From an uncultured bacterium (GTDB lineage Bacteria > Myxococcota_A > Polyangia > Nannocystales > Nannocystaceae), in assembly GCA_963761755.1 (NCBI GenBank), contig CAVXIC010000031.1:154776-218775 (forward strand): 64,000 nucleotides of DNA. Direction: 5' to 3'. The translations under genes were made by a program, and so were the position numbers. Positions 24,989 through 42,274 of this stretch are shown here, one piece after another; position 1 is the first letter of the stretch; every line of letters starts with the position of its first letter. Under the pieces are notes generated by a model. That model worked only from the letters and a program-made list of their open reading frames with translations. It was not told the origin of the DNA and made no database searches.

Positions 24989-25046
24989 GCGCTGCAGGAT
25001 CGGACGGCCGGCGCCCGTCGTCAACGCCGCGACGTCTGGACGGGGT

Positions 25047-26780
25047 ATGCTCCCGGCCGTGGATCGACAGCCACCGCGCGCCACCTCCAACGCGATCGAC
25101 CTCTACATTCGCACCTACTACTCCCTGCTGCGCAGCTCGGGGGAGGTGCGAGTTCGCGCGCTGGAGGAGTCCCACATCTTCAGCGAGTCGAGCCTGCATC
25201 CGGGGGCCAAGGACGACAAGCCGGACATCGCCGCCTTCGCCTACGCGTCGGGCCGTCTGCCGGGGTGCATGCACGCGGTCAAGCGCATGATCCTCGGGCA
25301 GTCCAGCGAGCAGTTCGGAGCCCACGGCATCGACGTGCACGACTGGGAGGTCGTCACCGCGCGGGGTCGGCGGCGCCCCAACCGGTGGAGCGGGGGCGAC
25401 ACGCTGGCCGTCTACATCACCTCCGCGACGGACATCGACGACCTCGTTCCCATCGTCACCGCGTACCAGCTGGAGTGGAACAACATGCATCGCGCCCTGA
25501 ACTTGGGGCCGCTGGGCAAGAAGCTGATCGCGAAGAAGCTGCCCGATGACGGGGTGCTCGACGAGCTGCTCGCCGATGCCTTGGGCCTCGAGCTGCACGA
25601 GGTCAGCAAGCTCCGTCCCGCGCTGGGCCCCAACCCGCTGGACATGCTCGCCGCGATCGCCCGCCGGGAGCAGGACCTGTCGATCCGCCTGCTGGCAGGC
25701 ACCCTGCTCGAGTATCGTCGCGCCACCCAGCGATGGTGGCTGGGCATCGAGTCGGCCTACCACAAGGCGGACACGCCGCCCCGACCGGTGTACTTCGTCT
25801 CGTCCAACACCCACGTGCTCGTCAACCTCATGGGGGGCTACGCCAGGACCCACCGCGACAAGATCTTCGAGTTCGCCCGTGAGGCGAACCCCGAGGACCT
25901 CGCCGACGACGTCACACGGGCGGTCGCGCAGGGCGACGAGGACGAGCTCAACAACCTCAGCTACTACCTGCTGCGACAGTACTTGCACGCCACCCCGCAG
26001 ACCCAAGATGCCCGCACCCTCGACGTGCAGGCGTGGGACCGGACCTGCGGGCTCTCTACGCTGACCTCGCCGGGGCAGCTCGACGTCAACGCGCAGCTGG
26101 TCGAGCTCTCCAAGCTGCGCCCCGAGTGCCTCGACCCTCGCGTTCGCGTTCCGGGCCTGGAGGCCCTGACGAACTCGGACGCGGTGATCATCAACATCGA
26201 CTATCCGCTGGGGATGGCGGCGTATCACCACCTCACCCAGCTGGCCCAAGGGGTCTCGGAGATCCGCGGCATCTACGTCATGGGCAAGGCGGCCACCCTC
26301 AACGGACGGGTGGGCGACGTCATGCTCTCGACGGTCGCCTACGACGAGCACTCCGAGAACACCTACCTGTTCCGCAACTGCTTCGTCGCCGAGGACATCG
26401 CGCCCTACGTGCACGGCACGGTGCTCGACAACCAAAAAGCGCTCACGGTTCGGGGCGCATTCCTGCAGAACCACGAATACATGAGCGTGTTCTACCGCGA
26501 GGGCTACACGGTGCTCGAGATGGAGGCCGGACCCTACCTCTCGGCCATCTACGAGATGGTCTACCCCAAGCGGCATCCCAAGAACGAGGTCGTGCACCTG
26601 AGCAACCTGCTGCCGTTCGACTTCGGGCTCATCCACTACGGCTCCGACACGCCCTACTCCAAGCGACAGAGCCTGCTGAGCAAGAGCCTGTCGTACTTCG
26701 GCATGGACAGCACCTACGGCGCCGCGGTGGCGATCGTGCGGCGCATCCTCCAGCAGGAGATCGAACGCATGAACGGCTGA
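25047..26780 (+). CDS. AMP-nucleosidase-like / PNP-UDP phosphorylase-superfamily protein with a long uncharacterised N-terminal region
   Basis: The C-terminal roughly 250 aa carry ..VIINIDYPLGMAAYHH..GIYVMGKAATL...TVLEMEAGPYL..IHYGSDTP.., the phosphorylase fold signature. The N-terminal roughly 300 aa have no recognised motif. Start chosen at MLPAVD (25047). Confidence 0.55.
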   Translation: MLPAVDRQPPRATSNAIDLYIRTYYSLLRSSGEVRVRALEESHIFSESSLHPGAKDDKPDIAAFAYASGRLPGCMHAVKRMILGQSSEQFGAHGIDVHDWEVVTARGRRRPNRWSGGDTLAVYITSATDIDDLVPIVTAYQLEWNNMHRALNLGPLGKKLIAKKLPDDGVLDELLADALGLELHEVSKLRPALGPNPLDMLAAIARREQDLSIRLLAGTLLEYRRATQRWWLGIESAYHKADTPPRPVYFVSSNTHVLVNLMGGYARTHRDKIFEFAREANPEDLADDVTRAVAQGDEDELNNLSYYLLRQYLHATPQTQDARTLDVQAWDRTCGLSTLTSPGQLDVNAQLVELSKLRPECLDPRVRVPGLEALTNSDAVIINIDYPLGMAAYHHLTQLAQGVSEIRGIYVMGKAATLNGRVGDVMLSTVAYDEHSENTYLFRNCFVAEDIAPYVHGTVLDNQKALTVRGAFLQNHEYMSVFYREGYTVLEMEAGPYLSAIYEMVYPKRHPKNEVVHLSNLLPFDFGLIHYGSDTPYSKRQSLLSKSLSYFGMDSTYGAAVAIVRRILQQEIERMNG

Positions 26781-26787
26781 GCGTCGC

Positions 26788-27657
26788 TCAGCGGGCGAGC
26801 AGGTGGTCGAGCAGCGGGCGGTGCACGTCCGCCTCCGCTTCCCCCATCTCGATCGTCTGGTCGAGCAGCTCGGGCTGCGTGTAGTCCCAGCGCTCGATCG
26901 GCACCGGCCGGGTGGGGGCGACGTACACCCGGTTGCCGTGGGCGCCCAATGCGTCGACCGGATAGGGGCGGGTGAGCAGGACCAAGTTGCCGCGCACCGC
27001 GGGGTGATCCTCGGCCACCCCGGCGGGCACGTTGTCGACCAGGGAACCATCGAGCAGCCGGGTGCCGCGGAAGCGACCCACCGGCGTGAACGGAGGTGTG
27101 GATGAGCTGGCGATCACCAGGTCGGCGAGCTCGTCGGGACTCGTGCACTCGCGCGCGTCGATGCGCATCGGACGAAAGCCCAGGCGGCGGCTCAGCTGCG
27201 GGTGCACGCGCGCCGGATCGAGGCGCTTTTCGAGGTTGTAGGCCCCAAAGCCGAGCAGCGCGCCGGCGGCTGCGGGCATCACCTTGGGGAACGCCGCGGT
27301 CAGCACCCACAGCGGAAACGGGGCGGCTTGGATCCGCTCCAGCCCACCGTCACTGTAGGCGCACAGCAGCGTGTCGCGGTAGATCGGCCCGTGCGGCGTG
27401 GGGGGTTGGCCCCGCAGGACCCGACTCCACTCGAAGTTCTTGGTGACGCCGGTGCGACGGGCCCGCCAGAAGTCTCGGGTGATGCGTTCACGCCCCGAGA
27501 GCCACAGCGTCGCGACGCAGGCGCCCGCGCTCACCGCCGCGACGGAGGCCAGCCGGGGTCGCAGGCGATCCTCCCAGGCATGCAGCAGTCCCAGCTGGTA
27601 GAAGGCTCGGTTGCCGCCGCCCGCGAAGGTGGCCGCGATGTTGCGCCGCGAGGCCAT
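26788..27657 (-). CDS. patatin-like phospholipase
   Basis: AGGGNRAFYQLGLL (GxGxxG), a VSAGA nucleophile motif, and LDGSLVDNVP (the DGG/A catalytic Asp). Confidence 0.75.
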   Translation of the reverse strand: MASRRNIAATFAGGGNRAFYQLGLLHAWEDRLRPRLASVAAVSAGACVATLWLSGRERITRDFWRARRTGVTKNFEWSRVLRGQPPTPHGPIYRDTLLCAYSDGGLERIQAAPFPLWVLTAAFPKVMPAAAGALLGFGAYNLEKRLDPARVHPQLSRRLGFRPMRIDARECTSPDELADLVIASSSTPPFTPVGRFRGTRLLDGSLVDNVPAGVAEDHPAVRGNLVLLTRPYPVDALGAHGNRVYVAPTRPVPIERWDYTQPELLDQTIEMGEAEADVHRPLLDHLLAR

Positions 27658-27702
27658 CGGCCGCACTTTGACGGCCCGAGGTCCTGGGCGCAAGCACGGG
27701 TT

Positions 27703-28210: not shown

Positions 28211-29683
28211 TCAGCCCTGAGGATGGGGCGCCATGATGTCGCGACGCTGGGCGGCCATCGGGTGTGCGTCGTCGAGGGTGACCCGGCCGCCGACGGTCTC
28301 GATCCCCAGGCGCTCGAACGTGTCTTCGACCCGCGGGAACCCCTCGGCCCCCAGCAAGCCGGCGGCAACCTCGGTGAACAAGGGCTTGCCGTACCAGGCG
28401 TCGAGTTCTTCGAGGAGGGTCTGGGCGGGCCACTTGTGCGTTGCGTCACCGCAGCACGCACGCAGGTGTCGCATGGCGTCGTCGAGGCTCCGCTCGCCGT
28501 CGGAGTCTTCTCGGACGGCCACGTCGAGCGCGAAGGCAACGGCCGCGCCGCCCCAGTAGACGCGCTGGTAGCCGAAGTTCTCGTGCATGCCCGCGCTCAC
28601 CTGCGCGAGGGTTCCAGGCCGCTGGGTGCGACGGCCGCGACCGAAGGCTTCGTAGAGTTCTTGCCAGCCCTCGCGCTCGTCGCGGTGCCCGGTCCGGGTG
28701 CGCTGCAGCTCGGTGTAGTAGCTCACCCATCCTTCCGCCATCCACGGCTCGTCGATGAACGGCATGCCGTGGTGCAGCAGCTCGTGGATGGTGGTCCATC
28801 CCCCCGGAAGCTCCGTGTCCTCGGCTTCGTCGTCCATGAGGATGTAGACGCCCGAGCCTCCGCCGCGACCGGCCATGCCGAAGTAGATCGGCCCGCCGCC
28901 GCCACCGTCGACCGGCAGGACCAACACCTGCAGATGCGCGCGGGGGTAGGTCCCATAGAGTTCGGCGGTGTTGAGCACCGCGTCGGTCGCCCACGCCCGC
29001 AGGCCGGCAGGGGTCGCGTGCATCGGGACATCGAGCGTCGCGACCTCGACCTGGGTGCCGCCGGCCTCGAAGCGCTGCAGACCCAGGGCTCCGAAGGCGT
29101 TGTAGCCGATCCACTGGAAGATCGTGGTGTCGAGCTCGTAGCGACACGTTCGCGCGCTGCGATCCTCCCCGGGCATGGGCGTCCACGGGACGGACGCGCC
29201 CACGCCCGGCGGCAGGTTGAGGGTCATGGTGACGCCGACGTCTTCGGGCAGCCCGCGCGGGTACCACAGCCACATGCTCTGTCGGAGCATCATGCTCTCG
29301 CCCTCGACCCGGGCGTGTCGCGAGAAGCCCTCGGCCCGGGACATCGCCGTTAGATCGACGGTGTAGTCGATGCAGTCGCCCGCCGAAACGCCCTGAAGGC
29401 TGAACGTTCGACCGGTGCGTGCGATCCGACGGCCGCCATGGCGAACGTGCTCGATGTAGTCCGCGGCGCGGGCGTTGGACGAGACGAGCCGGTCGCTGAC
29501 CGGCCCCTCCACGCACAGCCGGACCTCGATCCGGGTGACGTCGGGGTCGAGCGTCGCGGTGTAGTGCCAGGCCTGCTTGGCAGCGCTCTGCTCCGCACGT
29601 GGCGTGTTGGGCCCGTCTACGGGCGCTTTGCAGCCAATCGCCAGCAGGGGCAGGGCGCGCAGGAGCGGGCGAAGACGAGGCAC
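28211..29683 (-). CDS. Zn-metalloprotease lipoprotein (HExxH...E gluzincin-like)
   Basis: Lipobox LLAIGC. Contains TIHELLHHGMPF with a downstream Glu (EGWVSYY). Confidence 0.65.
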   Translation of the reverse strand: MPRLRPLLRALPLLAIGCKAPVDGPNTPRAEQSAAKQAWHYTATLDPDVTRIEVRLCVEGPVSDRLVSSNARAADYIEHVRHGGRRIARTGRTFSLQGVSAGDCIDYTVDLTAMSRAEGFSRHARVEGESMMLRQSMWLWYPRGLPEDVGVTMTLNLPPGVGASVPWTPMPGEDRSARTCRYELDTTIFQWIGYNAFGALGLQRFEAGGTQVEVATLDVPMHATPAGLRAWATDAVLNTAELYGTYPRAHLQVLVLPVDGGGGGPIYFGMAGRGGGSGVYILMDDEAEDTELPGGWTTIHELLHHGMPFIDEPWMAEGWVSYYTELQRTRTGHRDEREGWQELYEAFGRGRRTQRPGTLAQVSAGMHENFGYQRVYWGGAAVAFALDVAVREDSDGERSLDDAMRHLRACCGDATHKWPAQTLLEELDAWYGKPLFTEVAAGLLGAEGFPRVEDTFERLGIETVGGRVTLDDAHPMAAQRRDIMAPHPQG

Positions 29684-29981: not shown

Positions 29982-30779
29982 ATGACCGAGTTTCTCTCCA
30001 CCACGTTCAGCTTTCCGACGGTGATCTTCACCGTCCTGCTCGTCGTCTGTTGCGCGTACTGGCTGATGGTCATCGTCGGTGCCCTGGGCATCGACGCGCT
30101 CGACTTCGACTTCGACGGTCTCGACGGCGCCGCCGATGGAGCCGCGGAAGGGATCGTCGAAGGCGCCGCGGAGGGAGCCGCCGAGGGAGCCACCGAGGGT
30201 CTCGTCGAGGGGGCCACCGAGGGGGCCACCGAGGGCGTGTTCGATGGTGCCGCCACCGGCGTGAGCGAGGGCGCGGCCGAAGGCGCGAGCTTCGTGGGGA
30301 CTCTCTTCCTCACCTTCAAGCTCCGTCACGTCCCGATGACGCTCGTGCTCTCGGTGTGGCTGCTGTTCAGCTGGACCCTCAGCAGTCTGGCGCACGCATC
30401 CTTGATGCCGCAGCTCACGGCCCTTCCGGGCTGGCTGAGCGGGACGCTGGTCGTCTTGGGCTCGCTCGTCGTCTCGCTGCCGCTGACGTCGGTGCTCGTG
30501 CGCCCGCTGGGACGCGTGCTGAAGGTCGAGAAGCCCACCTCCAAGGGCGCGATCATCGGCCAGATCGTCAAGATCGACACCACCCGCGTCGACGCCGGCT
30601 TCGGCTCGGGCAAGGTGGAGGACGGTGGCGCGGGGCTCATCATTCGCGTGCGCTGCGACACCGACAATCGGCTCAGCCGCGGCAGCAAGGCGCTGGTGGT
30701 CTCCTACGACCCCAAGCGCGACGCCTACGAGGTCACGCCCGTCGACGACATGCTGCCTTCGGAGGCGAGCCGCACGTGA
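29982..30779 (+). CDS. YqiJ/NfeD-like membrane protein (TM helices, acidic EGAAEG tandem repeats, C-terminal OB-fold)
   Basis: N-terminal TM helix, then DALDFDFDGLDG plus (A/T)EGAAEG repeats, more TM helices, and a C-terminal OB-fold reading GQIVKIDTTRVDAGFGSGKVEDGGAGLIIRVRCD. Confidence 0.7.
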   Translation: MTEFLSTTFSFPTVIFTVLLVVCCAYWLMVIVGALGIDALDFDFDGLDGAADGAAEGIVEGAAEGAAEGATEGLVEGATEGATEGVFDGAATGVSEGAAEGASFVGTLFLTFKLRHVPMTLVLSVWLLFSWTLSSLAHASLMPQLTALPGWLSGTLVVLGSLVVSLPLTSVLVRPLGRVLKVEKPTSKGAIIGQIVKIDTTRVDAGFGSGKVEDGGAGLIIRVRCDTDNRLSRGSKALVVSYDPKRDAYEVTPVDDMLPSEASRT

Positions 30780-30912
30780 GCCCGTCGTCGCTCGTCTTTC
30801 CCCGTCTCCGTCATCGTCCCCATCCGTCCATCGTCGAGTCGTCTTCGTCCGCTGCCGTGCGCCGGACGGCGCGTTCAACCCACCCACACGTCCTCGGCCG
30901 CGCGCGGCCAGC

Positions 30913-30920
30913 AAAGGAGG
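30913..30920 (+). promoter_or_regulatory. Shine-Dalgarno AAAGGAGG 8 nt upstream of the flotillin ATG
   Basis: A perfect SD complement with appropriate spacing. Confidence 0.5.
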
Positions 30921-30928
30921 CCCCCATC

Positions 30929-33073
30929 ATGCCTAGTACCCAACTCCTGATCACCATCGGCGCCCTCATCGGCGGCATCCTGTTCTTCGGTCTGGGCATG
31001 ATCGCCCTGTACGCCAAGCTCTATCGCAAGGTCGATCAGGGCAAGGCGCTCATCGTCAACAAGACCTCCGACGTCCTGGTGTTCTTCACCGGTGGCCTCG
31101 TCATCCCGGTCATTCACCGCCACGAGACGATGGACATCTCGGTCAAGACGATCGAGATCGCCCGCATGAGCAAAGAGGGGCTCATCTGCAAGGACAACAT
31201 CCGCGCGGACATCAAGGTCACCTTCTTCGTGCGCGTCAACAAGACGCCCGAAGACGTGCTCAAGGTCGCGCAGTCCATCGGCACCGGTCGCGCGTCCGAC
31301 CAAGAGACGCTCGAGCAGCTCTTCATCGCCAAGTTCGCCGAAGCGCTCAAGACCGTCGGCAAGCAGCTCGACTTCGAGGAGCTGTACACCAAGCGGCACG
31401 TGTTCAAAGAGCAGATCATGGAGGTCATCGGCGACGACCTCAACGGCTACGTCCTCGACGACGCCGCGATCGACTACCTCGAGCAGACGCCCGTCGAGTC
31501 GCTCGACCACGACAACATCCTCGACGCCCGCGGTATCCGCAAGATCACCGAGATCACCGCGCAGCAGGCCGTTCATACCAACGAGCTGCGTCGTGACGCC
31601 GAGAAGAACACGCGCAAGAAGGACGTCGAGACCCGCGAGGCCATCTTGGAACTCGACCGGCAGCAGGCCGACGCCGAAGCCAAGCAAGCACGCGAGATCG
31701 CCACCGTGAAGGCCCGCGAAGAGGCCGAGACCGCCAAGGTCCAGTCCGAGGAGACCAAAAAATCCGAGCTGGCGCGGATCAAGCTCGAAGAAGAGGTCGC
31801 GATCAGCGAGGAGAACAAGCAGCGTCAGGTGCAGGTCGCCGGCAAGAACCGCGAGCGGGTGGTCGCCGTCGAACAAGAGCGGGTCCTCAAGGACCAGCAG
31901 CTCGAGAGCATCAGCCGCGAGCGAGAGACCGAACTCAAGCGCATCGACAAGGAAAAGGCGCTGGAGATCGAGAAGAAGGAGATCGAGGAGGTCATCCGCG
32001 CGCGCATCGTCGTGTACAAGACGCGCGTCGAGGAAGAAGAACGCATCAAGGACGTCCAGGTCATCGCGCTGGCCGACCGCGAGAAGAAGGCGACGATCAT
32101 CGCCGCCGAAGCCAAGGCCGAGGAGTCGTTGGTCGCCGAGATCAAGAAGGCGCAGGCCAATGAAGAGGCGGCCAAGTTCGAGGCCAAGCGTACGCTGACC
32201 CTCGCCGAGGCCTCCCTCGAGGCGAGCGACAAGGAGGCGCGGGCCAAGATTCGCCTCGCCGAAGGCATCCAGGCCGAGCAGGCCGCGACCGGCCTCGCCG
32301 AGGTCAAGGTCAAGGAAGCCGACGCCGTCGCGGTCGAGAAGCAAGGCGAGGCCAAGGCGCGCGTCACCAAGGGGCAGATGGTCGCCGAGGCCGAGGGGCG
32401 CGAAGCCCAGGGCATCGCGCTGGTGCGGGTCAAGGAAGCCGAAGCCGAGGCTGTGCGCAAGCAGGGCGAAGCGGAAGCGTCCGCGCGTCAGGCCATGATG
32501 CTGGCCGAAGCGCACGGCAAGGAAGCCGACGCGGTCGCCACCGAGAAGATGGGCGCGGCGCTGGCCGTCGAGCTGCGCGAGCGGGCCTTCGCCGAAGCGC
32601 AGGGGCTCGAGAAGAAGGCCGAAGCCATGGCCAAGCTCGACGAGCGCACCCGGGCGCACGAGGAGTTCCGCATCAAGCTGGACAAGGATGTCGAGGTCCG
32701 GATCAAGCAGATCGAGGCGCGCCAGAACATCGCCAAGGAGCAGGCCAAGGTCATGGCCGAAGCGATGGGCACGGCCAAGATCAACATCGTTGGCGGCGAC
32801 GGCGAGTTCTTCGACCGCTTCATCAACGCGGTCTCGATGGGCCAGGCGCTCGACGGCGTGATCAACAACTCCGACACCGCCCGCACGATGTTGGGCGAGT
32901 ACATCGACGGCGACCGGAGCCTGCCCGAGGACATCCGCGAGATCCTGTCGCGACCCAGCGTCGACGCGGGTGCCTTGAAGGACCTCACCGTCTCCGGGGC
33001 GCTCATGAAGCTGATGAGCAGTCTGGACGACGAGGGCAAGGCCAAGGTCCGCGGGCTGCTCGACAAGATCTAG
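30929..33073 (+). CDS. flotillin-family SPFH protein (YqiK/FloT-like), 714 aa with a very long EA-rich coiled coil
   Basis: N-terminal TM helix. The SPFH core reads GKALIVNKTSDVLVFFTGGLVIPVIH..; a Glu/Ala/Lys-rich heptad region of about 400 aa follows. Confidence 0.9.
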   Translation: MPSTQLLITIGALIGGILFFGLGMIALYAKLYRKVDQGKALIVNKTSDVLVFFTGGLVIPVIHRHETMDISVKTIEIARMSKEGLICKDNIRADIKVTFFVRVNKTPEDVLKVAQSIGTGRASDQETLEQLFIAKFAEALKTVGKQLDFEELYTKRHVFKEQIMEVIGDDLNGYVLDDAAIDYLEQTPVESLDHDNILDARGIRKITEITAQQAVHTNELRRDAEKNTRKKDVETREAILELDRQQADAEAKQAREIATVKAREEAETAKVQSEETKKSELARIKLEEEVAISEENKQRQVQVAGKNRERVVAVEQERVLKDQQLESISRERETELKRIDKEKALEIEKKEIEEVIRARIVVYKTRVEEEERIKDVQVIALADREKKATIIAAEAKAEESLVAEIKKAQANEEAAKFEAKRTLTLAEASLEASDKEARAKIRLAEGIQAEQAATGLAEVKVKEADAVAVEKQGEAKARVTKGQMVAEAEGREAQGIALVRVKEAEAEAVRKQGEAEASARQAMMLAEAHGKEADAVATEKMGAALAVELRERAFAEAQGLEKKAEAMAKLDERTRAHEEFRIKLDKDVEVRIKQIEARQNIAKEQAKVMAEAMGTAKINIVGGDGEFFDRFINAVSMGQALDGVINNSDTARTMLGEYIDGDRSLPEDIREILSRPSVDAGALKDLTVSGALMKLMSSLDDEGKAKVRGLLDKI

Positions 33074-33215
33074 TCTGGGCAGGGGCCTTTCGCACTGTTT
33101 GGCGCAGGCCCCTCGCTGTGGCGGCAAGACCGCCTCCGCTTCACCCCAAACGGGCGCCCCGTAGGGCGCCACCTCCGGGCGGTCGCGATTGTGGGCGACG
33201 GCAGAGTTTTCGATC

Positions 33216-36200
33216 ATGGCTGAAGAGAAACAAGCATCCGCTGAACCGACCGCCGCCGAGGGGACCGAAGAGGTCGGAGGCAGCTACGACGTCATCCGTG
33301 AACGGCTGGTGGCGCAGGCCAAGGAGTTGGCCCAGCGAGCGGGCAAGCTCAACGAAGCGCGGGTCGCCGAGTTTGGTGGGACCGAGCTCGCCGTGATCGG
33401 CAACGAGCGGGTGCGGACCGAGAACAACTGCTTGCCGCGCGACATCCTGCAGGTCGGTGGGCGGCTGCTGTTCGGCTACAACGTCTTCTTGGGTCTGCGT
33501 TCTGAGACCAACGCCTCGGACGTGTTCAGCCTGCACAACTTTGCGCAGGACGGCGAGACCTTCGATGTCTCCGCGGTGTCGTTCGAGGCCGGGGGCCCCG
33601 GCTTCCTGGCCAACGACGCGTTCCAGGCCCAGTTCAACGAGCTGTACTCGTTCTACAAGGAGGCTCGGCTGATCGCGCTGACCCGCAGCGAGACCAAGGC
33701 GTTGGCGGTGTTCCAGATCGGCGCGTCGGTGTCGGACGTGCGGGTGTTCCGGTGGACGATGGATGCCCAGGGGCAGCCGACGTATCAGGACAACCGGGGC
33801 GAGCGTGACTACGACTTTCCGCCCCAGCACGACTTCGAGTGGACGCGGTGCACCCGCGACCATCAGGTCGCCGGCGCCTACCCGCACATCTCGATCGAGG
33901 ACGAAGTCTTCGTGGAGACCACCGGCGGCGACCTCACGATCAAGGTCGAGAACAACACCGCATCCGGAGAGGGTATCTACGCCGAGCCGGTCGACGAGGC
34001 GGACCAGACGCTCGACGACGCCGAGTTCGAGTACGCGCGCGTGGGTCCGCTGATTCTGCTGCGGATCCTCCCGTACCGCGAAGAGGTGCGGCGTCACCTC
34101 GTGTTCTCGACCCGATCACACTCGGTCGTGCGCATCGACGCGATGGGCCAAGCCTGCGTGAGCCTGCCCGAGGACCACGGGGTGATGTTCCCCGGCGGCT
34201 ACTTCCTGCAGGACGGCCAGTACAAGGTCTTCGACGGGGACTTCGCCAACTACGAGTTCCAGCGCGCCACCCGTTCGCCCAACGGGGAGGACGTCCTGTA
34301 CGTGTTCCACAACCGCAGCACGGGCACGTACACGCTCTTCCCCTACAACATGATCCGCCGCGAGGTGCAAAACCCGATCCGGTGCTCGGGGTACTCCCTG
34401 TTCGACGATGGGCGCATGGTCGTGTTCCGCTTTACCGGCGACGAGCCCACGCGCGTGCACCCGATGCAGGTGTGGCAGACCCCGTTCGTCAGCGACGAGT
34501 TTGCGGCGGCGGCCCCCTCGTCGGACTCGATGCTGGGCAAGATCGGCAACGCCGATCTGGTCCGCGGGATCTCGGACTGTCTGTCGATCAAGCGCTACGT
34601 CGACGAGCAGGCCCCTTCGCGAAAGGTCTACGAGGACCTCATCTCCAACCTCACGCGCGCCATCGATGCGTACTACTGGCTCGCAGAGGCGGACACCTTC
34701 GACCTCAAGAGCGTGTTGCTCGAGATCCGTGGCACCGCGGAGCTGATCGTCGACGAGTTCGAGAAGGTCGTCGCGATCCGCAAGCAGGCGCGCGAGACGC
34801 TGGAGGAGGCCGCGGCCAAGCAGGAGGCCTTGATCCGCGACATGCGACCCGAGAGCTGGACCCGGGTGGACCAGTTCATGGACGCGCTGACCCAGCTTCG
34901 GACCCAGCGCGGGCATCTCATCACGATGAAGGAGATGCGCTACATGGACCTGGCCCGGGTCGACGAACTCGAGGCGCAGGTCGTGGAGCACTTCGACCGC
35001 CTGTCCCAGGACACCGTCGGATTCCTGCTCGAGGAGGACTCGCTCGCGCCGCTCTCGAACGAGCTCGAGCGCCTGCTCGAACGCTGCCAGAAGGTCGAGA
35101 AGACCAACGAGTTCGTTCCGCTTCGCGAGGAGCTGGACCGCGTCTCGGACGGCCTCAACGTGCTCTCCGACGTCGCGGCCAACCTCCAGGTCGACGACCC
35201 GACCGCACGCACGCGAATCCTCGAGCAGATCAGCGAGGTCTTTGCCCACCAAAACCGAGTCCGCGCCACGCTCGCCGGACGCCGCAAGGAGCTGCTCTCC
35301 GTCGAGGGCAAGGCCGAGTTCGGGGCGCAGTTCAAGCTCTTTGGCCAGTCGGTACAGAGCGCGATCGGCCTCGCGGACACGCCAGAGAAGTGCGACGAGC
35401 AGCTCTCGCGCCTGATGGTGCAGCTCGAGGAGCTCGAGGGGAAGTTCTCCGAGTTCGACGAGTTCATCGGGGAGCTCGCGCAGAAGCGCGAAGAGGTCTA
35501 CGAGGCCCTCGGACAGAAGAAACAGCAGCTGCTCGACGAGCGCCAGCGCCGGGTTCAGAACCTGTGGGGCGCCGCCGAGCGCATCCTTCAGGGCGTCTCG
35601 CGGCGCGCGTCGGCGTTCAAGGAGGTGGACCAGCTCAACGCCTACTTCGCCTCCGACGCGATGATCCTCAAGGTGCGCGACCTCTCCCAGCGCATCCTCG
35701 ATCTGGGCGACACGGTCAAGGCGGACGAGGTGCAAAGCCGCCTCAAGTCGGCCAAGCAAGACGCGCTGCGGGGCCTTCGGGATCGCTCCGAGCTGTTCGA
35801 CGGCGACGACAACCTGCTCAAGCTCGGGCACCACCGCTTCACGGTGAACACCCAGCCGCTCGAGCTGACGGTGCTGCCCAAGGACGATGGCATGGCGATC
35901 TCGATCTCGGGCACCGACTTCATGGAGCCGGTGACCGACGAGGCCTTCTTGGCCACGAAGGACTACTGGTCGCAGACGCTGATCTCGGAGACGAAGGCGG
36001 TCTATCGAGGGGAGTATCTGGCCGCGTCGATCCTCTTCGACGCCGAGGCGGACCGCGAGGGGCTCTCGATGGCGGCCCTGCACGCGGCCCAGCGCGAAGA
36101 GGGCGGCCTGCTCGCGCTCGTTCGCACCGTCTCTGGCAGCCGCTACCAGGAGGGCTACGAGCGCGGCGTCCACGATGCCGACGCGGCGGCGATCCTGGAG

Positions 36201-38567
36201 AAGGTGGTCACGCTGCACGACAGCGCGGGGCTGCTTCGTTTCGCGCCCACGGCCCGGGCGATCGGGTGCTTGTTCTGGGCGTACTCCGAGCATCCGCGCA
36301 AGGATGCGTGGCACCGGCGCTCTCGAAGCCTGGGCCGGCTGCGGGAGGCGTTCGGAGGGTCGACGGCGCAGGTGCAGCTTGGGGAGGAGCTGGCGGTGGC
36401 GGTCGAGGCGTTCATCGAGACCACCGGCCTGCCCGAGCCCGCCTCGCATGCGCCCACGACGGGTCGGTACCTGGTCGAGGAGCTGATCGCCGAGCGCCCG
36501 ATGTTCACCACCAGCGCCGAAGCCAACAAGCTGGTCGATGGGTTGATGGAGTACCTCGAGCTGCACGGCACCGGCCGCCGCGCGCTGGAAGACGACCTTC
36601 AGTCGCTGCAAGGGGATGTCGCCGCGCAATACCGTTTGGCGCGCTCGTGGATTCAGGCGTTCCTCGAGCAGGCCAAGGACGAAGCGCTGCGCGATCTGGC
36701 ACACGTCTTGGGGGAGGCCGCGGCGGTCTTGCTCACCCAGCGGTCGCTGCAGCGTACCGCCAACGCATCGCTCACCCGCTCTGCGGCCACGGGTCTGCTC
36801 GGTCAGCACGACCGCATCGAGGGCGGGTCGATCGGGCTGCGCATCGATGAGTTCCTGGAGCGCCTCGGTGCGTTCAAACACGAGCGGGTGCCGGGCTATC
36901 AGAAGTACCGCGAGATTCGGACGTCGGTGATCGAAGCCGAACGTCGGCGGCTTCGGGTGGAAGAGTTCAAGCCGCGCGTGCTCAGCTCGTTCGTCCGCAA
37001 CAAGCTGATCAACGACGTCTATCTGCCGCTGATCGGGGACAACCTCGCCAAGCAGCTGGGCGCGGCAGGGGACAGCAAGCGCACCGACCTGATGGGGCTG
37101 CTGCTGCTCGTCTCCCCGCCGGGATACGGCAAGACGACGTTGATGGAGTACGTCGCCAGCCGGCTGGGTTTGGCGTTCGTCAAGGTCAACGGACCGGCGC
37201 TGGGGCACTCGGTGGTCTCGATCGACCCGAGCGAGGCGCCCAACGCGACGGCGCGCCAAGAGGTCGAGAAGATCAACCTGGCGCTGGAGATGGGCAACAA
37301 CGTGATGCTCTACCTCGACGACATCCAGCACACCCACCCCGAGCTGCTGCAGAAGTTCATCTCGCTGTGCGATGCGCAGCGCCGCATCGAGGGCGTCTGG
37401 AAGGGGCGCACGCGCACGTACGACCTGCGGGGCAAGAAGTTCTGCGTGGTGATGGCCGGCAACCCGTACACCGAGGCCGGCGAGAAGTTCCAGATCCCCG
37501 ACATGCTCGCCAACCGGGCGGACACGTACAACCTCGGCGACATCCTGTCGGGCAAGGGGGACGCGTTTGCGCTCAGCTACATCGAGAACGCGATCACGTC
37601 CAATGCAGTGCTGGCTCCGTTGGCCACCCGCGAACAGGGGGACATCTACAAGCTGGTGCGGATGGCCCGGGGCGAGGAGATCAACACCTCGGACCTCTCC
37701 CACGGGTACTCGGCGGTGGAGATCGGTGAGATCACCGGCGTCCTGCAGCACATGTTCAAGGCGCAGGAGGTGCTGCTCAAGGTCAACATGCAGTACATCG
37801 AGTCGGCGTCGATGGACGACCAGTACCGCACCGAGCCGCGCTTCCAGCTGCAGGGCTCCTACCGCAACATGGCCAAGCTGGCCGAGAAGATCGTCCCGGC
37901 GATGAACGACGACGAGGTCCGGCGTCTGATCGACGACCACTACGTCGGGGAGGCGCAGACGCTGACCTCAGGTGCCGAGCACAACCTGCTCAAGCTGGCC
38001 GAGCTTCGCGGGACGCTGACGCAGGAGCAGGCGGCGCGATGGGCCCAGATCAAGAAGGACTTTGGGCGGGTCAAGCTCATGGGCGGCAGCGACGACGATC
38101 CGATCGCCCGCGTGACGGGCCAGCTCACCGGGTTGACCGACAAGCTCGGCGGGATTCAGACCGCGATGGAGAGCAACTCGGCGGTCACCGACAAGCTCGC
38201 GGGCATCGAGCGGGCGGTGATGGGTGCGGCCAAGCTGATGCAAGAGGGTGCGGGCGCTGCAAACGGCGCGGCGGCGCGAGATGCCGCGTTCATCGCGGCG
38301 ATGCAGAGCCTGTCCTCGGCGGTGGGGTTGATGCAGAGCCCCAAGCTGCAGGTCAACATCGAGAACCAGCCGCCGCCGGGAGTCGAGGAGCTGCTGGCGC
38401 AGCAGGTGGCGATCATCGAGCGGACGCTGGTGCCGCTGGTCCGCAGCACCAACGAGCACATGGGCAATCCCACCAAGGTCGACGCGAAGGTCGCAGAGCT
38501 GCTGAGCATCGTGCGTTCGATGGACGCCAAGCTGCGCGGGGGGCAGGGCGCGGCGGGTCCGCCCTAG
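33216..38567 (+). CDS. giant (1783 aa) coiled-coil protein with a C-terminal MoxR/AAA_5-like AAA+ ATPase module; function unknown
   Basis: Walker A LLLLVSPPGYGKTTLMEYVA, Walker B VMLYLDDIQH, sensor-1 CVVMAGNPYTE. The N-terminal roughly 450 aa form a beta-rich region with no motif, and the centre is a long heptad coiled coil. ATG at 33216 is preferred over the ORF-finder's TTG at 33189. Confidence 0.8.
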   Translation: MAEEKQASAEPTAAEGTEEVGGSYDVIRERLVAQAKELAQRAGKLNEARVAEFGGTELAVIGNERVRTENNCLPRDILQVGGRLLFGYNVFLGLRSETNASDVFSLHNFAQDGETFDVSAVSFEAGGPGFLANDAFQAQFNELYSFYKEARLIALTRSETKALAVFQIGASVSDVRVFRWTMDAQGQPTYQDNRGERDYDFPPQHDFEWTRCTRDHQVAGAYPHISIEDEVFVETTGGDLTIKVENNTASGEGIYAEPVDEADQTLDDAEFEYARVGPLILLRILPYREEVRRHLVFSTRSHSVVRIDAMGQACVSLPEDHGVMFPGGYFLQDGQYKVFDGDFANYEFQRATRSPNGEDVLYVFHNRSTGTYTLFPYNMIRREVQNPIRCSGYSLFDDGRMVVFRFTGDEPTRVHPMQVWQTPFVSDEFAAAAPSSDSMLGKIGNADLVRGISDCLSIKRYVDEQAPSRKVYEDLISNLTRAIDAYYWLAEADTFDLKSVLLEIRGTAELIVDEFEKVVAIRKQARETLEEAAAKQEALIRDMRPESWTRVDQFMDALTQLRTQRGHLITMKEMRYMDLARVDELEAQVVEHFDRLSQDTVGFLLEEDSLAPLSNELERLLERCQKVEKTNEFVPLREELDRVSDGLNVLSDVAANLQVDDPTARTRILEQISEVFAHQNRVRATLAGRRKELLSVEGKAEFGAQFKLFGQSVQSAIGLADTPEKCDEQLSRLMVQLEELEGKFSEFDEFIGELAQKREEVYEALGQKKQQLLDERQRRVQNLWGAAERILQGVSRRASAFKEVDQLNAYFASDAMILKVRDLSQRILDLGDTVKADEVQSRLKSAKQDALRGLRDRSELFDGDDNLLKLGHHRFTVNTQPLELTVLPKDDGMAISISGTDFMEPVTDEAFLATKDYWSQTLISETKAVYRGEYLAASILFDAEADREGLSMAALHAAQREEGGLLALVRTVSGSRYQEGYERGVHDADAAAILEKVVTLHDSAGLLRFAPTARAIGCLFWAYSEHPRKDAWHRRSRSLGRLREAFGGSTAQVQLGEELAVAVEAFIETTGLPEPASHAPTTGRYLVEELIAERPMFTTSAEANKLVDGLMEYLELHGTGRRALEDDLQSLQGDVAAQYRLARSWIQAFLEQAKDEALRDLAHVLGEAAAVLLTQRSLQRTANASLTRSAATGLLGQHDRIEGGSIGLRIDEFLERLGAFKHERVPGYQKYREIRTSVIEAERRRLRVEEFKPRVLSSFVRNKLINDVYLPLIGDNLAKQLGAAGDSKRTDLMGLLLLVSPPGYGKTTLMEYVASRLGLAFVKVNGPALGHSVVSIDPSEAPNATARQEVEKINLALEMGNNVMLYLDDIQHTHPELLQKFISLCDAQRRIEGVWKGRTRTYDLRGKKFCVVMAGNPYTEAGEKFQIPDMLANRADTYNLGDILSGKGDAFALSYIENAITSNAVLAPLATREQGDIYKLVRMARGEEINTSDLSHGYSAVEIGEITGVLQHMFKAQEVLLKVNMQYIESASMDDQYRTEPRFQLQGSYRNMAKLAEKIVPAMNDDEVRRLIDDHYVGEAQTLTSGAEHNLLKLAELRGTLTQEQAARWAQIKKDFGRVKLMGGSDDDPIARVTGQLTGLTDKLGGIQTAMESNSAVTDKLAGIERAVMGAAKLMQEGAGAANGAAARDAAFIAAMQSLSSAVGLMQSPKLQVNIENQPPPGVEELLAQQVAIIERTLVPLVRSTNEHMGNPTKVDAKVAELLSIVRSMDAKLRGGQGAAGPP

Positions 38568-38584: not shown

Positions 38585-39487
38585 CTAGGGCTCGCCGCAG
38601 TACCCGACGCCGACTGCACCGGGCAGCGGGAGGCACTCGAGCCCGTTGCTGCACGACACGATGTCAGGGATGCAGTAGGCGGTGCAGCACGAACCGTCGC
38701 ACCCTGGGAACGGGTCGTTCAGGCAGATCAACCCCGGGACGCATTCGTTGATCAGAGTACAGCTCCCGCCTTCGACGGTCTCCCCAGCGGGCTGACAGTC
38801 GAAACCCGACGTACCGACGACGCAGGTGAGTCCCTGAATGCACCCGTTGAAGCCGTTCTCGAGGGTGGGATTGCAGTCGCGGCACAGACCAAAGTCTCCG
38901 CTCTGTCGGGTTGCATGCGTCACGCAAACCCGGTCTCCATCGCAGGGCGCCGAGTCGTCCTCGCACAGCGCGACGCACGTGGGGGAGTCACCGTAGGGGT
39001 CGCAGATGGCTCCGGGCGGGCAGGCGTCGTCGCCCCTCAGGACGGTCGGGTCGTCGGCACACGAGCGCTGGCACGCATCTCCGAGGGCGAGGGGTTGCGC
39101 CTTCGGCTCCGGCATGCAGCCAATGCCTTCGGGGTCGCCGACGGGTCCCCACGGGACGCACCGCTCGCTGCTGCGGCACGCGTCGGGGTCGAAGAACTCG
39201 CAGTCTTCGGTGGGCGTACCGCAGGCGAGCGGCACGTCCAGTGGCGGCGGGCCAGTGGTGGTCATGGGGCCCGCCGACGTCTCCGGTGCGAGCGTCGTTC
39301 CCGCCGACGTGCTCGGGCCCCCGACCTCCTCTCCGCGGGTCGAGCTTGCGGCGGTGGTCCCCGCATCGCTCGAGTCCGACGCCTTCGCGCCGTCCGCGTA
39401 GGCGGGGTTGAGCCGCGTGCACCCTCCGGCGAGCATGGCCGCGACCGCCGTCGCGGCTCCGATCCGAGCGATCACGGGTTCGAGCAT
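38585..39487 (-). CDS. Cys-rich secreted lipoprotein (myxobacterial-type Cys-repeat domain)
   Basis: Lipobox MLAGGC and a Ser/Thr linker, then many CxxxC/CxDxxC repeats. Confidence 0.7.
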   Translation of the reverse strand: MLEPVIARIGAATAVAAMLAGGCTRLNPAYADGAKASDSSDAGTTAASSTRGEEVGGPSTSAGTTLAPETSAGPMTTTGPPPLDVPLACGTPTEDCEFFDPDACRSSERCVPWGPVGDPEGIGCMPEPKAQPLALGDACQRSCADDPTVLRGDDACPPGAICDPYGDSPTCVALCEDDSAPCDGDRVCVTHATRQSGDFGLCRDCNPTLENGFNGCIQGLTCVVGTSGFDCQPAGETVEGGSCTLINECVPGLICLNDPFPGCDGSCCTAYCIPDIVSCSNGLECLPLPGAVGVGYCGEP

Positions 39488-39542
39488 CGCACACGGGCCC
39501 GGGGCGGGTCACCACGCGAAGGTCAGCTGCTACCGTCCGGCG

Positions 39543-40413
39543 ATGCGACGAGGACTCATTGGGCCGCTCGCGGGCCTCTTCATCGTCTCCTGCGTGCCCA
39601 AGGGCGAGTATGACGAGCTCAAGCGCGACCTGGGCGAAGCTCGGCGCGCGCTGGTCGACGGTGACGTCGAAGCGGCGGGCCGTGAGGGGGCGCTGTCCCA
39701 GCAGCGGGCGTTGCTGGCGCGGACCGAAGAGCAGCTGAGCGCCGCGCAGCGCGAGGCGGCGGCGCTGCGGCGCGAGCTGGAGATGACGGCCGTGCAGCGC
39801 GACGCTCGAGCGGCCGAGCTGGCCGAAGCCATGAAGGACCAGATGGCGCTGCAGGACTCGATCGAGTCGATGACGCGCGCGCTGGCGATGGCCAACGAAC
39901 GCGAACTCGCGGCGGAGCAGCGGGTCTATGAATTTCAGGGAGCTGTTGACACGCTTCAAGTCGCTGATCGACGCGGGCAAGCTTCGGATCAAGATCGTCG
40001 GGGGTCGGATGGTGCTGGAGTTGCCGACCGACATCCTCTTCCCGAGCGGCTCGGCGACCCTGTCCGAAGAGGGGCAGGCCGCGCTCGAGGAGGTTGGGGC
40101 CGGCCTCGCCCAGATGAGCGACCGTGAGTTCCAGGTGGAGGGGCACACCGACGACGTCCCGATCGACACCCGGCGCTTCCCGGACAACTGGGCGCTGGCG
40201 GCGGGCCGTGCCCTGGGGGTGCGCGCGACGCTGGAGGCTGCGGGCATGAAGCCTTCGCAGCTGAGCGCCGCGAGCTTCGCACAGACGCGCCCGGTGCAAG
40301 ACAACGACACCGCGGCGGGGAAAGCGGCGAACCGTCGCATCGAGATCGTGCTGCTGCCAGACCTCTCGTCCCTGCCGGGGTCCGAGGAGCTCGAGGCCCT
40401 GGGCGGGGGCTGA
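39543..40413 (+). CDS. OmpA-family lipoprotein (signal peptide/lipobox + coiled coil + OmpA C-terminal domain) with an apparent +1 frameshift near 39925; possibly a pseudogene or a sequencing error
   Basis: Frame 0 gives MRRGLIGPLAGLFIVSC plus a coiled coil up to about ..ELAAEQRV. Frame +1 from 39928 gives NFRELLTRFKSLIDAGKLRIKIVGGRMVLELPTDILFPSGSATL...NRRIEIVLLP, an OmpA-like domain. An OmpA domain with no signal peptide is implausible as a separate gene. Confidence 0.55.
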
Positions 40414-40510
40414 GGCATCATCCACCTTGGCGCGCGTGCGCGACTCTCGTACTCTTGTCCGGTCGACTTAGGGGCTGGGCAAACCCAGGAATCGAAGAGG
40501 GCACATCAAC

Positions 40511-41368
40511 ATGAAGAAACTCGTTTATCTCCTTCCCATGATCGCGCTGGCGCTGCCCGCGTGTGGCGACGACGCGACCGGCGTAGACACCGACGACGAG
40601 ACCGGCGGTACCACCACCGACACGACGGGCCCGTCAACTCAGGGCAGCACCACGGACGAAACCGACCCGACCGTCGCCGACACGGGGACCGAGAGTGGGG
40701 ATCCCCCCGGCTGCACCCCCGACGACGAGTGCACCCCCGAGACCGTCGCCGAAGCCTGCGGCGAGTTCTTCGCCTGTGTTGGATGCTTCTGCGTGGCCGA
40801 CGGCGACCCACCCCTGTGCCCGGATGGGTGGGGCGAGGGGGAGTACGCGGACTGCGTTGAAGGCGGCAACGGGGTTTGCATGTCCGCGGGCTTGCAACCG
40901 GGGTGCCTCGTCGACAACGTGCAGACGCCAACCGCCGGCGTCTGTTTCTATCAGGGCTGCGAGGCAGCGTGCGACTGTCCGGCTGGGCCATCTCCAGAGT
41001 TCGACGACCAGGTTGCCTGCGACGACATCACGGGCGATGGCACGAACGACTGCTTCCTCGAGTGCGGAGACTGTCCGGAGGGCATGTTCTGCGACGGTGG
41101 CGTGTGCTTGCACGGCGAGGCGCCTCCGTTCCCCGACTACGCGGACTGCTTGAACGAGGACCTCCCGATTTGCGACACGGACGGCATCTGCCTCTCCAAC
41201 GATGAAGACTTTGGCGTATGCGGAAGTATCGACTGCGAGGACGACAGCGACTGCGGGGAGGCGCCTGAGACAGGCGACGCAATGCCTGGGTGCACCGAGT
41301 TCCCCGACGGCTCCACATCATTCTGCAGCCTCACCTGCGACGGGGGGAGACGTGCCCGGACGGCATGA
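40511..41368 (+). CDS. Cys-rich lipoprotein, 5' segment (likely continuous with 41381..42274 across two closely spaced frameshifts)
   Basis: Lipobox LPACGDD and Cys-rich repeats. It ends ..FCSLTCDGG and then hits a stop directly after a G6 run. Confidence 0.6.
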   Translation: MKKLVYLLPMIALALPACGDDATGVDTDDETGGTTTDTTGPSTQGSTTDETDPTVADTGTESGDPPGCTPDDECTPETVAEACGEFFACVGCFCVADGDPPLCPDGWGEGEYADCVEGGNGVCMSAGLQPGCLVDNVQTPTAGVCFYQGCEAACDCPAGPSPEFDDQVACDDITGDGTNDCFLECGDCPEGMFCDGGVCLHGEAPPFPDYADCLNEDLPICDTDGICLSNDEDFGVCGSIDCEDDSDCGEAPETGDAMPGCTEFPDGSTSFCSLTCDGGRRARTA

Positions 41369-41380
41369 TCTGCATCTCTC

Positions 41381-42274
41381 TTGCCCTGGGAGGGGAGGGG
41401 ATTCGGGAGCCACTGTGTGTGGCCCCCCGCTCCCGATTCCGGCTTCCAAGACTGCGCGGCGCAAGGCGATGGCATCTGCCTCGACGGCGAGACCTGCATC
41501 GAAACGACCGCGAAGGGGTCTGGAACCACGCAGGTCTGCGCGGCTGCAGACTGTACGGACCCGGTCGCCGACTGTCCCGTGGTGCCTGAGACCGGGGATG
41601 CTCCGGCCGCCTGCCAGGATATCGACGGCGCCGGGGGGGACGAGTGCGTGCTCGACTGCAGTGGGGGCGAGACCTGCCCCGACGGCGCCGTCTGCACGGA
41701 CGACGGTTTCTGCTCCTACGAGATTCCTGCGTTCTTCGAGGGCTTCCAGTCGGGGGATATCCCCGCCGGTTGGACCACCCACGATGTGGATGGCTTGGTC
41801 GTTTCCGAAGATCTCCCGATCACCGTCGACGAGGCCTGGGTCGCAACCGACTTCTTCTCCCCGACCGGAGAGTTCTGGGCCACGGCGACGTCTTGGTACG
41901 ACCCAGTCGGCACCTCCGACGATTGGCTCATCTCTCCGGCGATCACGCTGGGAGACACGGCGACGCTGTCATGGCTGGCGTTCACACCAAGCGCGATGTA
42001 CCCGGACGGCTACCAGGTCTACGTCGTGCCCACCACCGTGACCGAGTTCACGGACTTCATCGGCGACGGTGACCCCATCGCCTTCCTTGCCCTGGACGAG
42101 GGCGTGATCCCATCGGCCGCTCCGGTGTTCGAGATCGCAGCTGAGGAGGCGGATCCTCAGAGCCGAAGCGTGGATATCGGCGCACTCGCCGGCCAGGAGG
42201 TCCACCTCGCCTTCCGGAACAACACCGAAGACGGTGTCGTGATCCTGATCGACGACATCGCAATCTACGAGTAG
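41381..42274 (+). CDS. Cys-rich repeat plus C-terminal choice-of-anchor-J / cleaved-adhesin-like domain, 3' segment of the same adhesin-like gene
   Basis: Same frame as 40511..41368. There is no signal peptide of its own. Contains ..CSGGETCPDGAVCTDDGFC.. and then FFEGFQSGDIPAGWTTHDVDG..W.. (the choice-of-anchor J signature). Confidence 0.6.
   Translation: MPWEGRGFGSHCVWPPAPDSGFQDCAAQGDGICLDGETCIETTAKGSGTTQVCAAADCTDPVADCPVVPETGDAPAACQDIDGAGGDECVLDCSGGETCPDGAVCTDDGFCSYEIPAFFEGFQSGDIPAGWTTHDVDGLVVSEDLPITVDEAWVATDFFSPTGEFWATATSWYDPVGTSDDWLISPAITLGDTATLSWLAFTPSAMYPDGYQVYVVPTTVTEFTDFIGDGDPIAFLALDEGVIPSAAPVFEIAAEEADPQSRSVDIGALAGQEVHLAFRNNTEDGVVILIDDIAIYE

Follow-up and report, generated by a model that had tools for sequence, protein, structure and literature searches.

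A giant DUF3686 ATPase inherited with a long flotillin and a YqiJ-like membrane protein: a candidate ATP-driven remodeller of a bacterial membrane scaffold

Introduction

Why should a giant soluble ATPase, named a 'DNA repair ATPase' by NCBI, be encoded behind a flotillin and a small membrane protein? The question is posed by a stretch of 64,000 nucleotides (nt) from an uncultured bacterium of the Nannocystaceae (contig CAVXIC010000031.1, positions 154,776 to 218,775), referred to throughout, at its full length, as the window. Three consecutive plus-strand genes at 29982-38567 encode a YqiJ/NfeD-like protein (P1), a flotillin (P2) and the ATPase (P3). An earlier note, made from the sequence without database searches, had proposed that P3 is a dedicated AAA+ partner of the flotillin, analogous to FtsH in its association with HflK/HflC. 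The analysis described here shows that the three genes are inherited together in every phylum sampled. From this linkage, which is observed, we infer with a probability of roughly 0.6 that P3 uses ATP to remodel a flotillin/YqiJ scaffold in the membrane under envelope stress.

The locus is laid out as follows, with protein lengths in amino acids (aa).

29982-30779, plus strand: P1, YqiJ/NfeD2-like membrane protein, 265 aa (from the translation)
30914-30920, plus strand: Shine-Dalgarno sequence AAGGAGG, 8 nt 5′ of the P2 ATG (read in the sequence)
30929-33073, plus strand: P2, long flotillin of the YqiK/SPFH2 type, 714 aa
33074-33215, plus strand: intercistronic gap between P2 and P3, 142 nt
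33216-38567, plus strand: P3, giant soluble ATPase, 1,783 aa, NCBI name 'DNA repair ATPase' (from the translation and Pfam)

The coordinates of the trio, the strong Shine-Dalgarno sequence ahead of the 714-aa flotillin, and the 142-nt gap before the 1,783-aa protein all agree with the earlier note.

Inheritance of the cassette across bacteria

Does the association extend beyond this one genome? A pattern scan with each species represented by one genome recovered at least 584 relatives of P3. Synteny was then read by tblastn and by unbiased clustering of open reading frames (ORFs) in 81 loci, namely the best-scoring 80 of these at least 584 relatives together with the Enhygromyxa locus. The best 80 loci bear the labels Myxococcota, Actinomycetota, Gammaproteobacteria, Acidobacteriota and Planctomycetota, with one metagenome-assembled genome labelled Clostridia; Myxococcus, Corallococcus, Streptomyces and Pseudomonas are among the carriers. 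A full-length flotillin, 44-93% identical to P2 of the window, lies upstream of the ATPase on the same strand in 80 of the 81 loci and is its immediate neighbor in 79. The sole locus without a flotillin offers just 69 bases of upstream DNA. The distance between the two genes is short, with a median of 68 nt and no more than 150 nt in 69 of the 80 loci. A YqiJ-like gene lies upstream in 70-75 of the 81, and ORF clustering found no other gene conserved across the whole set.

The same trio recurs in three relatives with 34% identity in the N-terminal domain, on the Pseudomonas fluorescens SBW25 megaplasmid pQBR103, and on a Deinococcus plasmid. The earlier note had staked its proposal on orthologues of P3 being syntenic with flotillin genes elsewhere, and they are, in 80 of the 81 loci and in five further loci. 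The three proteins also diverge in step, as pairwise identities of the ATPase correlate with those of the flotillin (r = 0.89) and of the YqiJ-like protein (r = 0.88). These correlations show co-inheritance as a cassette, not contact. As a separate observation, the flotillin and the ATPase of locus L016 (3614-9977) stand 6.4 kb apart, the only such case, with three surface-type genes of the OmpA/TSP3, DUF11 and Laminin_G_3 kinds inserted between them on the same strand.

The flotillin and its YqiJ-like neighbor

Is P2 a flotillin at all, given its unusual length? In a scan limited to the N-terminal 240 aa, residues 34-175 (nt 31028-31453) match Band_7 (PF01145) with an E-value (E) of 6.7e-12, and BLASTP aligns P2 with Escherichia coli YqiK at 1e-38, with 28% identity over 440 aa. 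By hydropathy, the sole hydrophobic segment is an N-terminal membrane anchor at residues 1-32. The protein further contains a 477-aa proline-free, charged helical region, about half of whose residues are E, K, R, D or Q. An SPFH domain following a membrane anchor, homology to YqiK, a charged helical tail, and a YqiJ-type gene directly upstream are thus all found together, and P2 is, as judged from its sequence, a flotillin of the YqiK/SPFH2 type.

Full-length P2 gave no match in Pfam or NCBIfam beyond low-complexity FliH noise, and a phmmer search of the PDB found nothing. The missing full-length Band_7 match probably reflects the HMMER composition filter, set off by the charged helical region. 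Since Band_7 is matched only when the N-terminus is isolated, automated annotation is likely to miss such flotillins. In the precomputed gene tables of five loci (L001, L083, L084, L088 and L090), the flotillin is shown as '-'. In an 83%-identical relative (L089, 952-1584), a separate Band_7 product of 210 aa is called between the YqiJ-like gene and a 720-aa flotillin, and may stem either from an additional short SPFH gene or from an error in gene calling.

P1 was more elusive to profile searches. Hydropathy indicates about three transmembrane (TM) segments, at residues 4-42, 119-137 and 145-176; the linker is an acidic Gly/Ala repeat of the EGAAEG type; and the last ~75 residues appear beta-rich and OB-like from the sequence. 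P1 matched nothing in Pfam, even at E <= 10, the NfeD, YqiJ_N and YqiJ_OB profiles included, nor anything in NCBIfam, and hmmsearch with the P1 profile against PDB sequences found nothing. Among 30 members of the P1 family, one matches YqiJ_N (E 7.3e-5). When the 30-member profile was aligned with E. coli YqiJ by hhalign, the two matched at a probability of 92.2% (E 5.9e-7) over 131 columns that span TM2-TM3 and the C-terminal beta domain. Remote homology and context thus make YqiJ/NfeD2-like the best name for P1, in keeping with the earlier description of an NfeD/YqiJ-like membrane protein bearing acidic repeats.

Architecture of the giant ATPase

What kind of motor, then, has been placed beside this flotillin? 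The recognizable parts of P3 are listed here in order.

33324-34676, plus strand: DUF3686 (PF12458) domain, residues 37-487
34563-35825, plus strand: helical, coiled-coil-like stalk, residues ~450-870 (hydrophobic periodicity of 3.5 residues, few Pro or Gly, high charge)
35037-35291, plus strand: DUF7902 (PF25472), residues 608-692, inside the stalk (E 5.9e-26)
35853-36965, plus strand: predicted all-alpha globular domain, residues ~880-1250 (AlphaFold2 blocks with predicted local distance difference test scores, pLDDT, of ~85-95)
37068-37550, plus strand: AAA+ alpha/beta core, residues ~1285-1445
37113-37139, plus strand: Walker A motif, SPPGYGKTT
37302-37322, plus strand: Walker B motif, VMLYLDD, residues 1363-1369
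37452-37475, plus strand: sensor 1, MAGNPYTE

The N-terminal ~450 aa had been described as lacking any recognizable motif, which proved wrong: the region matches DUF3686 over profile positions 1-448 of 448 with an E of 6.8e-203. The AlphaFold2 model of residues 1-505 (pLDDT 88, predicted template-modelling score 0.86) starts with a helix, continues as a body rich in beta strands and is capped by helices, the model inputs being substrings of proteins returned by a protein search. On this model, the DUF3686 body is predicted to be a divergent beta-propeller-like domain that follows an N-terminal helix. The coiled coil, previously put at more than 500 aa, needs shortening to a stretch of ~420 aa (residues ~450-870), with residues ~880-1250 forming the globular all-alpha domain instead. 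This domain carries an invariant RY-EGY-RG-HD-DA motif (G980, Y981, G984, H986 and D989) and, when compared with solved structures, gave no match above the AAA+ matches.

The complete MoxR/AAA_5-type module of the earlier note, with its SPPGYGKTT, hhhhDD and AGNP motifs, is present and invariant in the family. As judged over 16 diverse members, the invariant elements are SPPGYGKTT, LYLDD, AGNP with the sensor-1 residue N1416, and R1434, the candidate arginine finger. The Walker B motif is noncanonical, reading hhhhDD in place of hhhhDE; both D1368 and D1369, as well as the IQH that follows, are invariant. The AAA_5 profile is matched over positions 2-125 of 139 at 29.2 bits, above its cut-off of 22. 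Foldseek places the modelled module among Skd3/ClpB, RuvB and NorQ, the nearest solved folds being those of the MoxR proteins NorQ and CbbQ, and the model places a beta-hairpin ahead of sensor 1. The MoxR-like label is thus supported by the AAA+ motifs and the fold neighbors, with two departures: the DD Walker B and the lack of a VWA partner.

Elsewhere in P3, hydropathy reveals no hydrophobic segment and hence no TM segment, and Pfam no peptidase domain. The family is large, with more than 6,300 homologues and 762 clusters at 50% identity in a representative library. The earlier note had left room for P3 to fall into a well-characterised unrelated family; profile searches place it only in DUF3686, DUF7902 and a generic AAA+ module.

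Might P3 nevertheless be a DNA repair enzyme, just as it is named, and its adjacency to flotillin incidental? Pfam describes DUF3686 as an 'ATPase involved in DNA repair', NCBI names P3 accordingly, as the earlier note had expected of gene-callers, and weak RuvB_N and RuvB matches can be found. However, the RuvB matches cover the P-loop region only, at 21 bits against a cut-off of 282, and Pfam detects no DNA-binding or nuclease domain in P3. The literature search returned no paper on DUF3686 or PF12458, the nearest folds are those of MoxR chaperones, and the linkage in 80 of the 81 loci is to membrane proteins, never to repair genes. No support was found for the 'DNA repair ATPase' label, which conflicts with the membrane context, and a repair function with a chance flotillin neighbor is very improbable.

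Boundaries of the locus and the P2-P3 gap

Do the three genes constitute one unit? The 64-kb window has a GC content of ~69%, at which long spurious ORFs are common. P1 through P3 are nonetheless real genes and not chance ORFs, given the GC content at third codon positions (0.88-0.91 in P1 and P3), the Pfam matches of P2 and P3, and the conserved homologues of all three. P1 and P2 are spaced by 149 nt. On either side of the trio lie minus-strand ORFs with coding-type composition: the upstream one ends at ~29740, and the downstream one starts at 38585, a mere 17 nt past the P3 stop. Bounded in this way by opposite-strand genes, the trio is a self-contained unit, and it probably represents a three-gene operon encoding one membrane-associated machine.

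The gap at 33074-33215 is where such an operon could be interrupted, and the earlier note had considered that it might contain its own promoter together with a flotillin terminator. Neither consensus was found, as a scan not tuned to myxobacteria detected no sigma-70-like promoter and no intrinsic terminator. This result comes with the caveat that two GC-rich hairpins, at 33082-33113 and 33120-33134, lie just past the P2 stop, followed by TTCACCCCAAACGGGCG at 33140-33156. Folding of the gap is ordinary, with a z-score of -0.67. The hairpins may act as a partial terminator or as an mRNA-stabilising structure; by lowering read-through, they would let the scaffold protein outnumber the motor. The hairpin module is doubled in tandem in a 91%-identical relative (L002, 6693-6910) and is not conserved past this closest relative, and the GC hairpins that occupy this place in the more distant L088-L090 are unrelated to it. 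A genome-wide repeat akin to repetitive extragenic palindromes was also considered and ruled out, the module being single-copy in the 64-kb window.

Further out, the upstream region (24699-27693 and 28211-29683) encodes a DUF6909 protein (E 4e-207), a minus-strand patatin-like phospholipase, and a 490-aa minus-strand product. The patatin-like gene is common only to the close relative L038, and the 490-aa gene to L038 and L002; the two look like lineage synteny, not parts of the cassette. Downstream (38585-42274), synteny with the close relatives L088 and L090 extends over a minus-strand gene for a 300-aa product, an OmpA gene and one with a Cleaved_Adhesin domain. These relatives derive from metagenomes of marine origin (Tara Oceans sample ERR599290), and the window too is from a marine, Nannocystaceae-like metagenome-assembled genome.

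Envelope-stress context

With what does the cassette keep company where it is extended? Across the 81 loci, DUF2170/YjfI is added in 14, PspA in 11, and a PLD gene in 8 gammaproteobacterial loci. The CesT-like YjfI and PspA are placed upstream of the cassette and the PLD gene downstream, as exemplified by locus L021. On pQBR103 (NC_009444.1, 84437-97641), the cassette ends one same-strand run of YjfI, PspA, rhomboid, DUF2491, DUF350, DUF1190, glutathionylspermidine-synthase-like, YqiJ-like, SPFH and ATPase genes. The linked PspA, YjfI, TelA and polyamine genes are modules of envelope-stress systems.

Several individual loci merit separate mention. The pQBR103 run fuses two operon classes associated with the phage shock protein (PSP) system that were kept separate by Ravi et al. 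Of the relatives with 34% N-domain identity, one has a TelA (toxic anion resistance) gene 3′ of the ATPase (L083, 13001-14221), and another a rhomboid gene just upstream of the YqiJ-like gene (L084, 4192-4857). The PLD gene of L021 (15930-16652) and of seven other gammaproteobacterial loci matches the PLD domains of the defence proteins MkoC, DrmC and DpdK in PADLOC, at E 2e-12 to 1e-8. From these sequence matches, the cassette PLD may be of the nuclease rather than the lipase type.

Such matches bring up an anti-phage or conflict system, in which the cassette would sense infection or membrane perturbation and trigger a membrane- or PLD-based abortive response. The distribution across phyla is patchy and accessory-like, with 13 plasmid-collection records including the megaplasmid pQBR103. 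The PLD of the extended cassette matches the PLD domains of MkoC and DrmC at E 2e-12 to 5e-11, and the ATPase is a very large coiled-coil protein with a weak PADLOC match to LmuB (residues 520-887, 4.8e-6). In PADLOC-DB 2.0, however, P1 and P2 match nothing, P3 yields only the LmuB coiled-coil match and others at the level of the P-loop, and the neighbors in the window are without a match. A search of 50,697 phage records found the gene in none, the surroundings of the 81 loci show no recurrent genes typical of defence islands, and the linked genes point to envelope stress instead. A defence function is accordingly improbable.

Proposed mechanism and its weight

How might a soluble ATPase serve a membrane-anchored flotillin? 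From established SPFH biology, the N-terminally anchored flotillin and its YqiJ/NfeD-type partner would assemble into a large oligomer, a scaffold or cage that sits on the inner membrane and faces the cytoplasm. The ATPase would dock onto this scaffold via its propeller-like head and helical stalk, oligomerise through its AAA+ module, and spend ATP on building the flotillin scaffold, taking it apart or recycling it. A PspA scaffold, in the loci that have one, may be acted on in the same way. The purpose of the cycle would be membrane maintenance or repair under stress, a role akin to that of Vps4 on ESCRT-III or of MoxR chaperones on large complexes. A bolder version, that the flotillin/YqiJ scaffold and the DUF3686 AAA+ protein make up a physical, ATP-driven membrane-remodelling or repair machine controlling the assembly and turnover of flotillin (and of PspA), is drawn by analogy and stays tentative.

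Several considerations weigh against a remodelling role for P3. First, the flotillins E. coli YqiK and Shewanella SO1377 function without such an ATPase. Second, the motor has oddities of its own. Its DD Walker B may render hydrolysis slow or switch-like, judging by the motif. MoxR ATPases are normally paired with a VWA partner; no VWA domain occurs among the window neighbors, nor is there a further conserved neighbor in the 81 loci. As read from the sequence, the strand 2-helix 2 stretch lacks an aromatic-hydrophobic-Gly pore loop, which makes threading unlikely and keeps remodelling putative. Third, the genomic case has limits: tblastn with the PspA, DUF2170 and PLD proteins of L021 found nothing in the 64-kb window, and weaker relatives of P3 were sampled only five times. 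Moreover, the putative ATPase-flotillin partnership is read from genomic association.

The same synteny would fit equally well a scheme in which the ATPase works not on the scaffold but through it. Here, the flotillin/YqiJ cage corrals membrane or membrane-proximal clients, which the ATPase extracts, unfolds or matures. Of the schemes considered, this is the closest to the HflKC-FtsH analogy of the earlier note. SPFH scaffolds repeatedly pair with AAA+ machines, as in HflK/C-FtsH, prohibitin-m-AAA, SLP2-YME1L-PARL and erlin-p97. Client enzymes are the targets of the MoxR relatives NorQ and CbbQ, and the rhomboid genes found in the same run in pQBR103 and L084 recall SLP2-PARL-YME1L. P3, however, has no peptidase domain, no TM anchor and no canonical pore loop, and the cassette contains no conserved candidate client gene; client processing is thus an unlikely account of the ATPase. 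As for the dedicated AAA+ partner envisaged in the earlier note, each of the three conditions named there as refuting it came out in its favor, and the synteny supports the partner itself, whereas the HflKC-FtsH analogy proved loose, as P3 lacks both a TM segment and a peptidase domain.

Significance

The function of bacterial flotillins is disputed, deletion studies having produced mild or pleiotropic phenotypes, and the cassette offers a testable lead. With at least 584 matches in a species-level genome collection, a long-flotillin subfamily would come with a dedicated energy-consuming partner. Its culturable carriers and the well-studied pQBR103 make the system experimentally tractable. If P3 does remodel the flotillin scaffold, the cassette would parallel in bacteria the logic of ESCRT-III/Vps4 or of SPFH-AAA supercomplexes, and would provide the first enzymatic handle on bacterial flotillin function.

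Comparison with known systems

How much of this was already on record? The neighborhood has been described by comparative genomics (Ravi et al., 2024; PMC11237479), in one paragraph with no counts and no experiments. Listed there are a flotillin of the band-7 type, a 3-TM protein of the YqiJ/YuaF type and a 'novel AAA+ ATPase' that has coiled-coil and beta-propeller regions; some Proteobacteria add a PLD, and PspA is absent from 'abbreviated operons'. The window contains the flotillin, the YqiJ/YuaF-type protein and the propeller/coiled-coil AAA+ protein, without the CesT/Tir (YjfI)-PspA pair and without a PLD, and so corresponds to the 'abbreviated' form; the full form (YjfI-PspA-...-PLD) is reproduced in loci such as L021. 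Ravi et al. frame the ATPase as a partner of PspA, whereas here it tracks flotillin (80 of 81 loci) far more than PspA (11 of 81). The earlier note had called the system uncharacterised. This stands insofar as no experimental study was found in the literature, but the association itself had already been described, which limits the novelty of the finding. The literature search yielded no paper joining flotillin with 'DNA repair ATPase', and nothing relevant joining it with MoxR or with a Myxococcus xanthus ATPase; a survey of Pseudomonas aeruginosa SPFH proteins includes no DUF3686 partner.

The flotillin operons E. coli YqiJ-YqiK and Bacillus subtilis YuaF(NfeD2)-FloT share the order of the window, an NfeD-type membrane protein followed by a flotillin, yet have no ATPase, and the window flotillin, at 714 aa, is longer than their 553 aa. 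The Shewanella SO1377 knock-out, which is a mutator and H2O2-sensitive, was considered as evidence on the cassette and rejected, as SO1376/SO1377 constitute a yqiJK operon of just two genes, which has a terminator of its own and lacks an ATPase.

HflK/HflC-FtsH, prohibitin-m-AAA and SLP2-YME1L-PARL each couple an SPFH scaffold to an AAA+ machine, and serve as a working analogy only. Whereas FtsH belongs to the classical clade of AAA proteases and has a TM anchor and an M41 peptidase domain, P3 is soluble, MoxR-like and devoid of a peptidase domain. The orientations differ as well: periplasmic for the HflK/C cage, cytoplasmic for YqiK-type flotillins. The MoxR chaperones (NorQ/NorD, CbbQ/CbbO and RavA/ViaA) resemble P3 in the motor itself, where AAA_5 is matched nearly end to end and the beta-hairpin before sensor 1 is likewise modelled. 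Compared with them, P3 is about six times longer, adds DUF3686, DUF7902 and the alpha domain, has no VWA partner gene, and bears a DD Walker B. Finally, ESCRT-III/Vps4 and the PspA systems offer, by analogy, the plan of a membrane-bound polymeric scaffold served by a dedicated AAA+ ATPase. Vps4 is a classical-clade AAA protein with an MIT domain, and flotillin is not an ESCRT-III protein; PspA, for its part, shares an operon with the cassette in 11 of the 81 loci.

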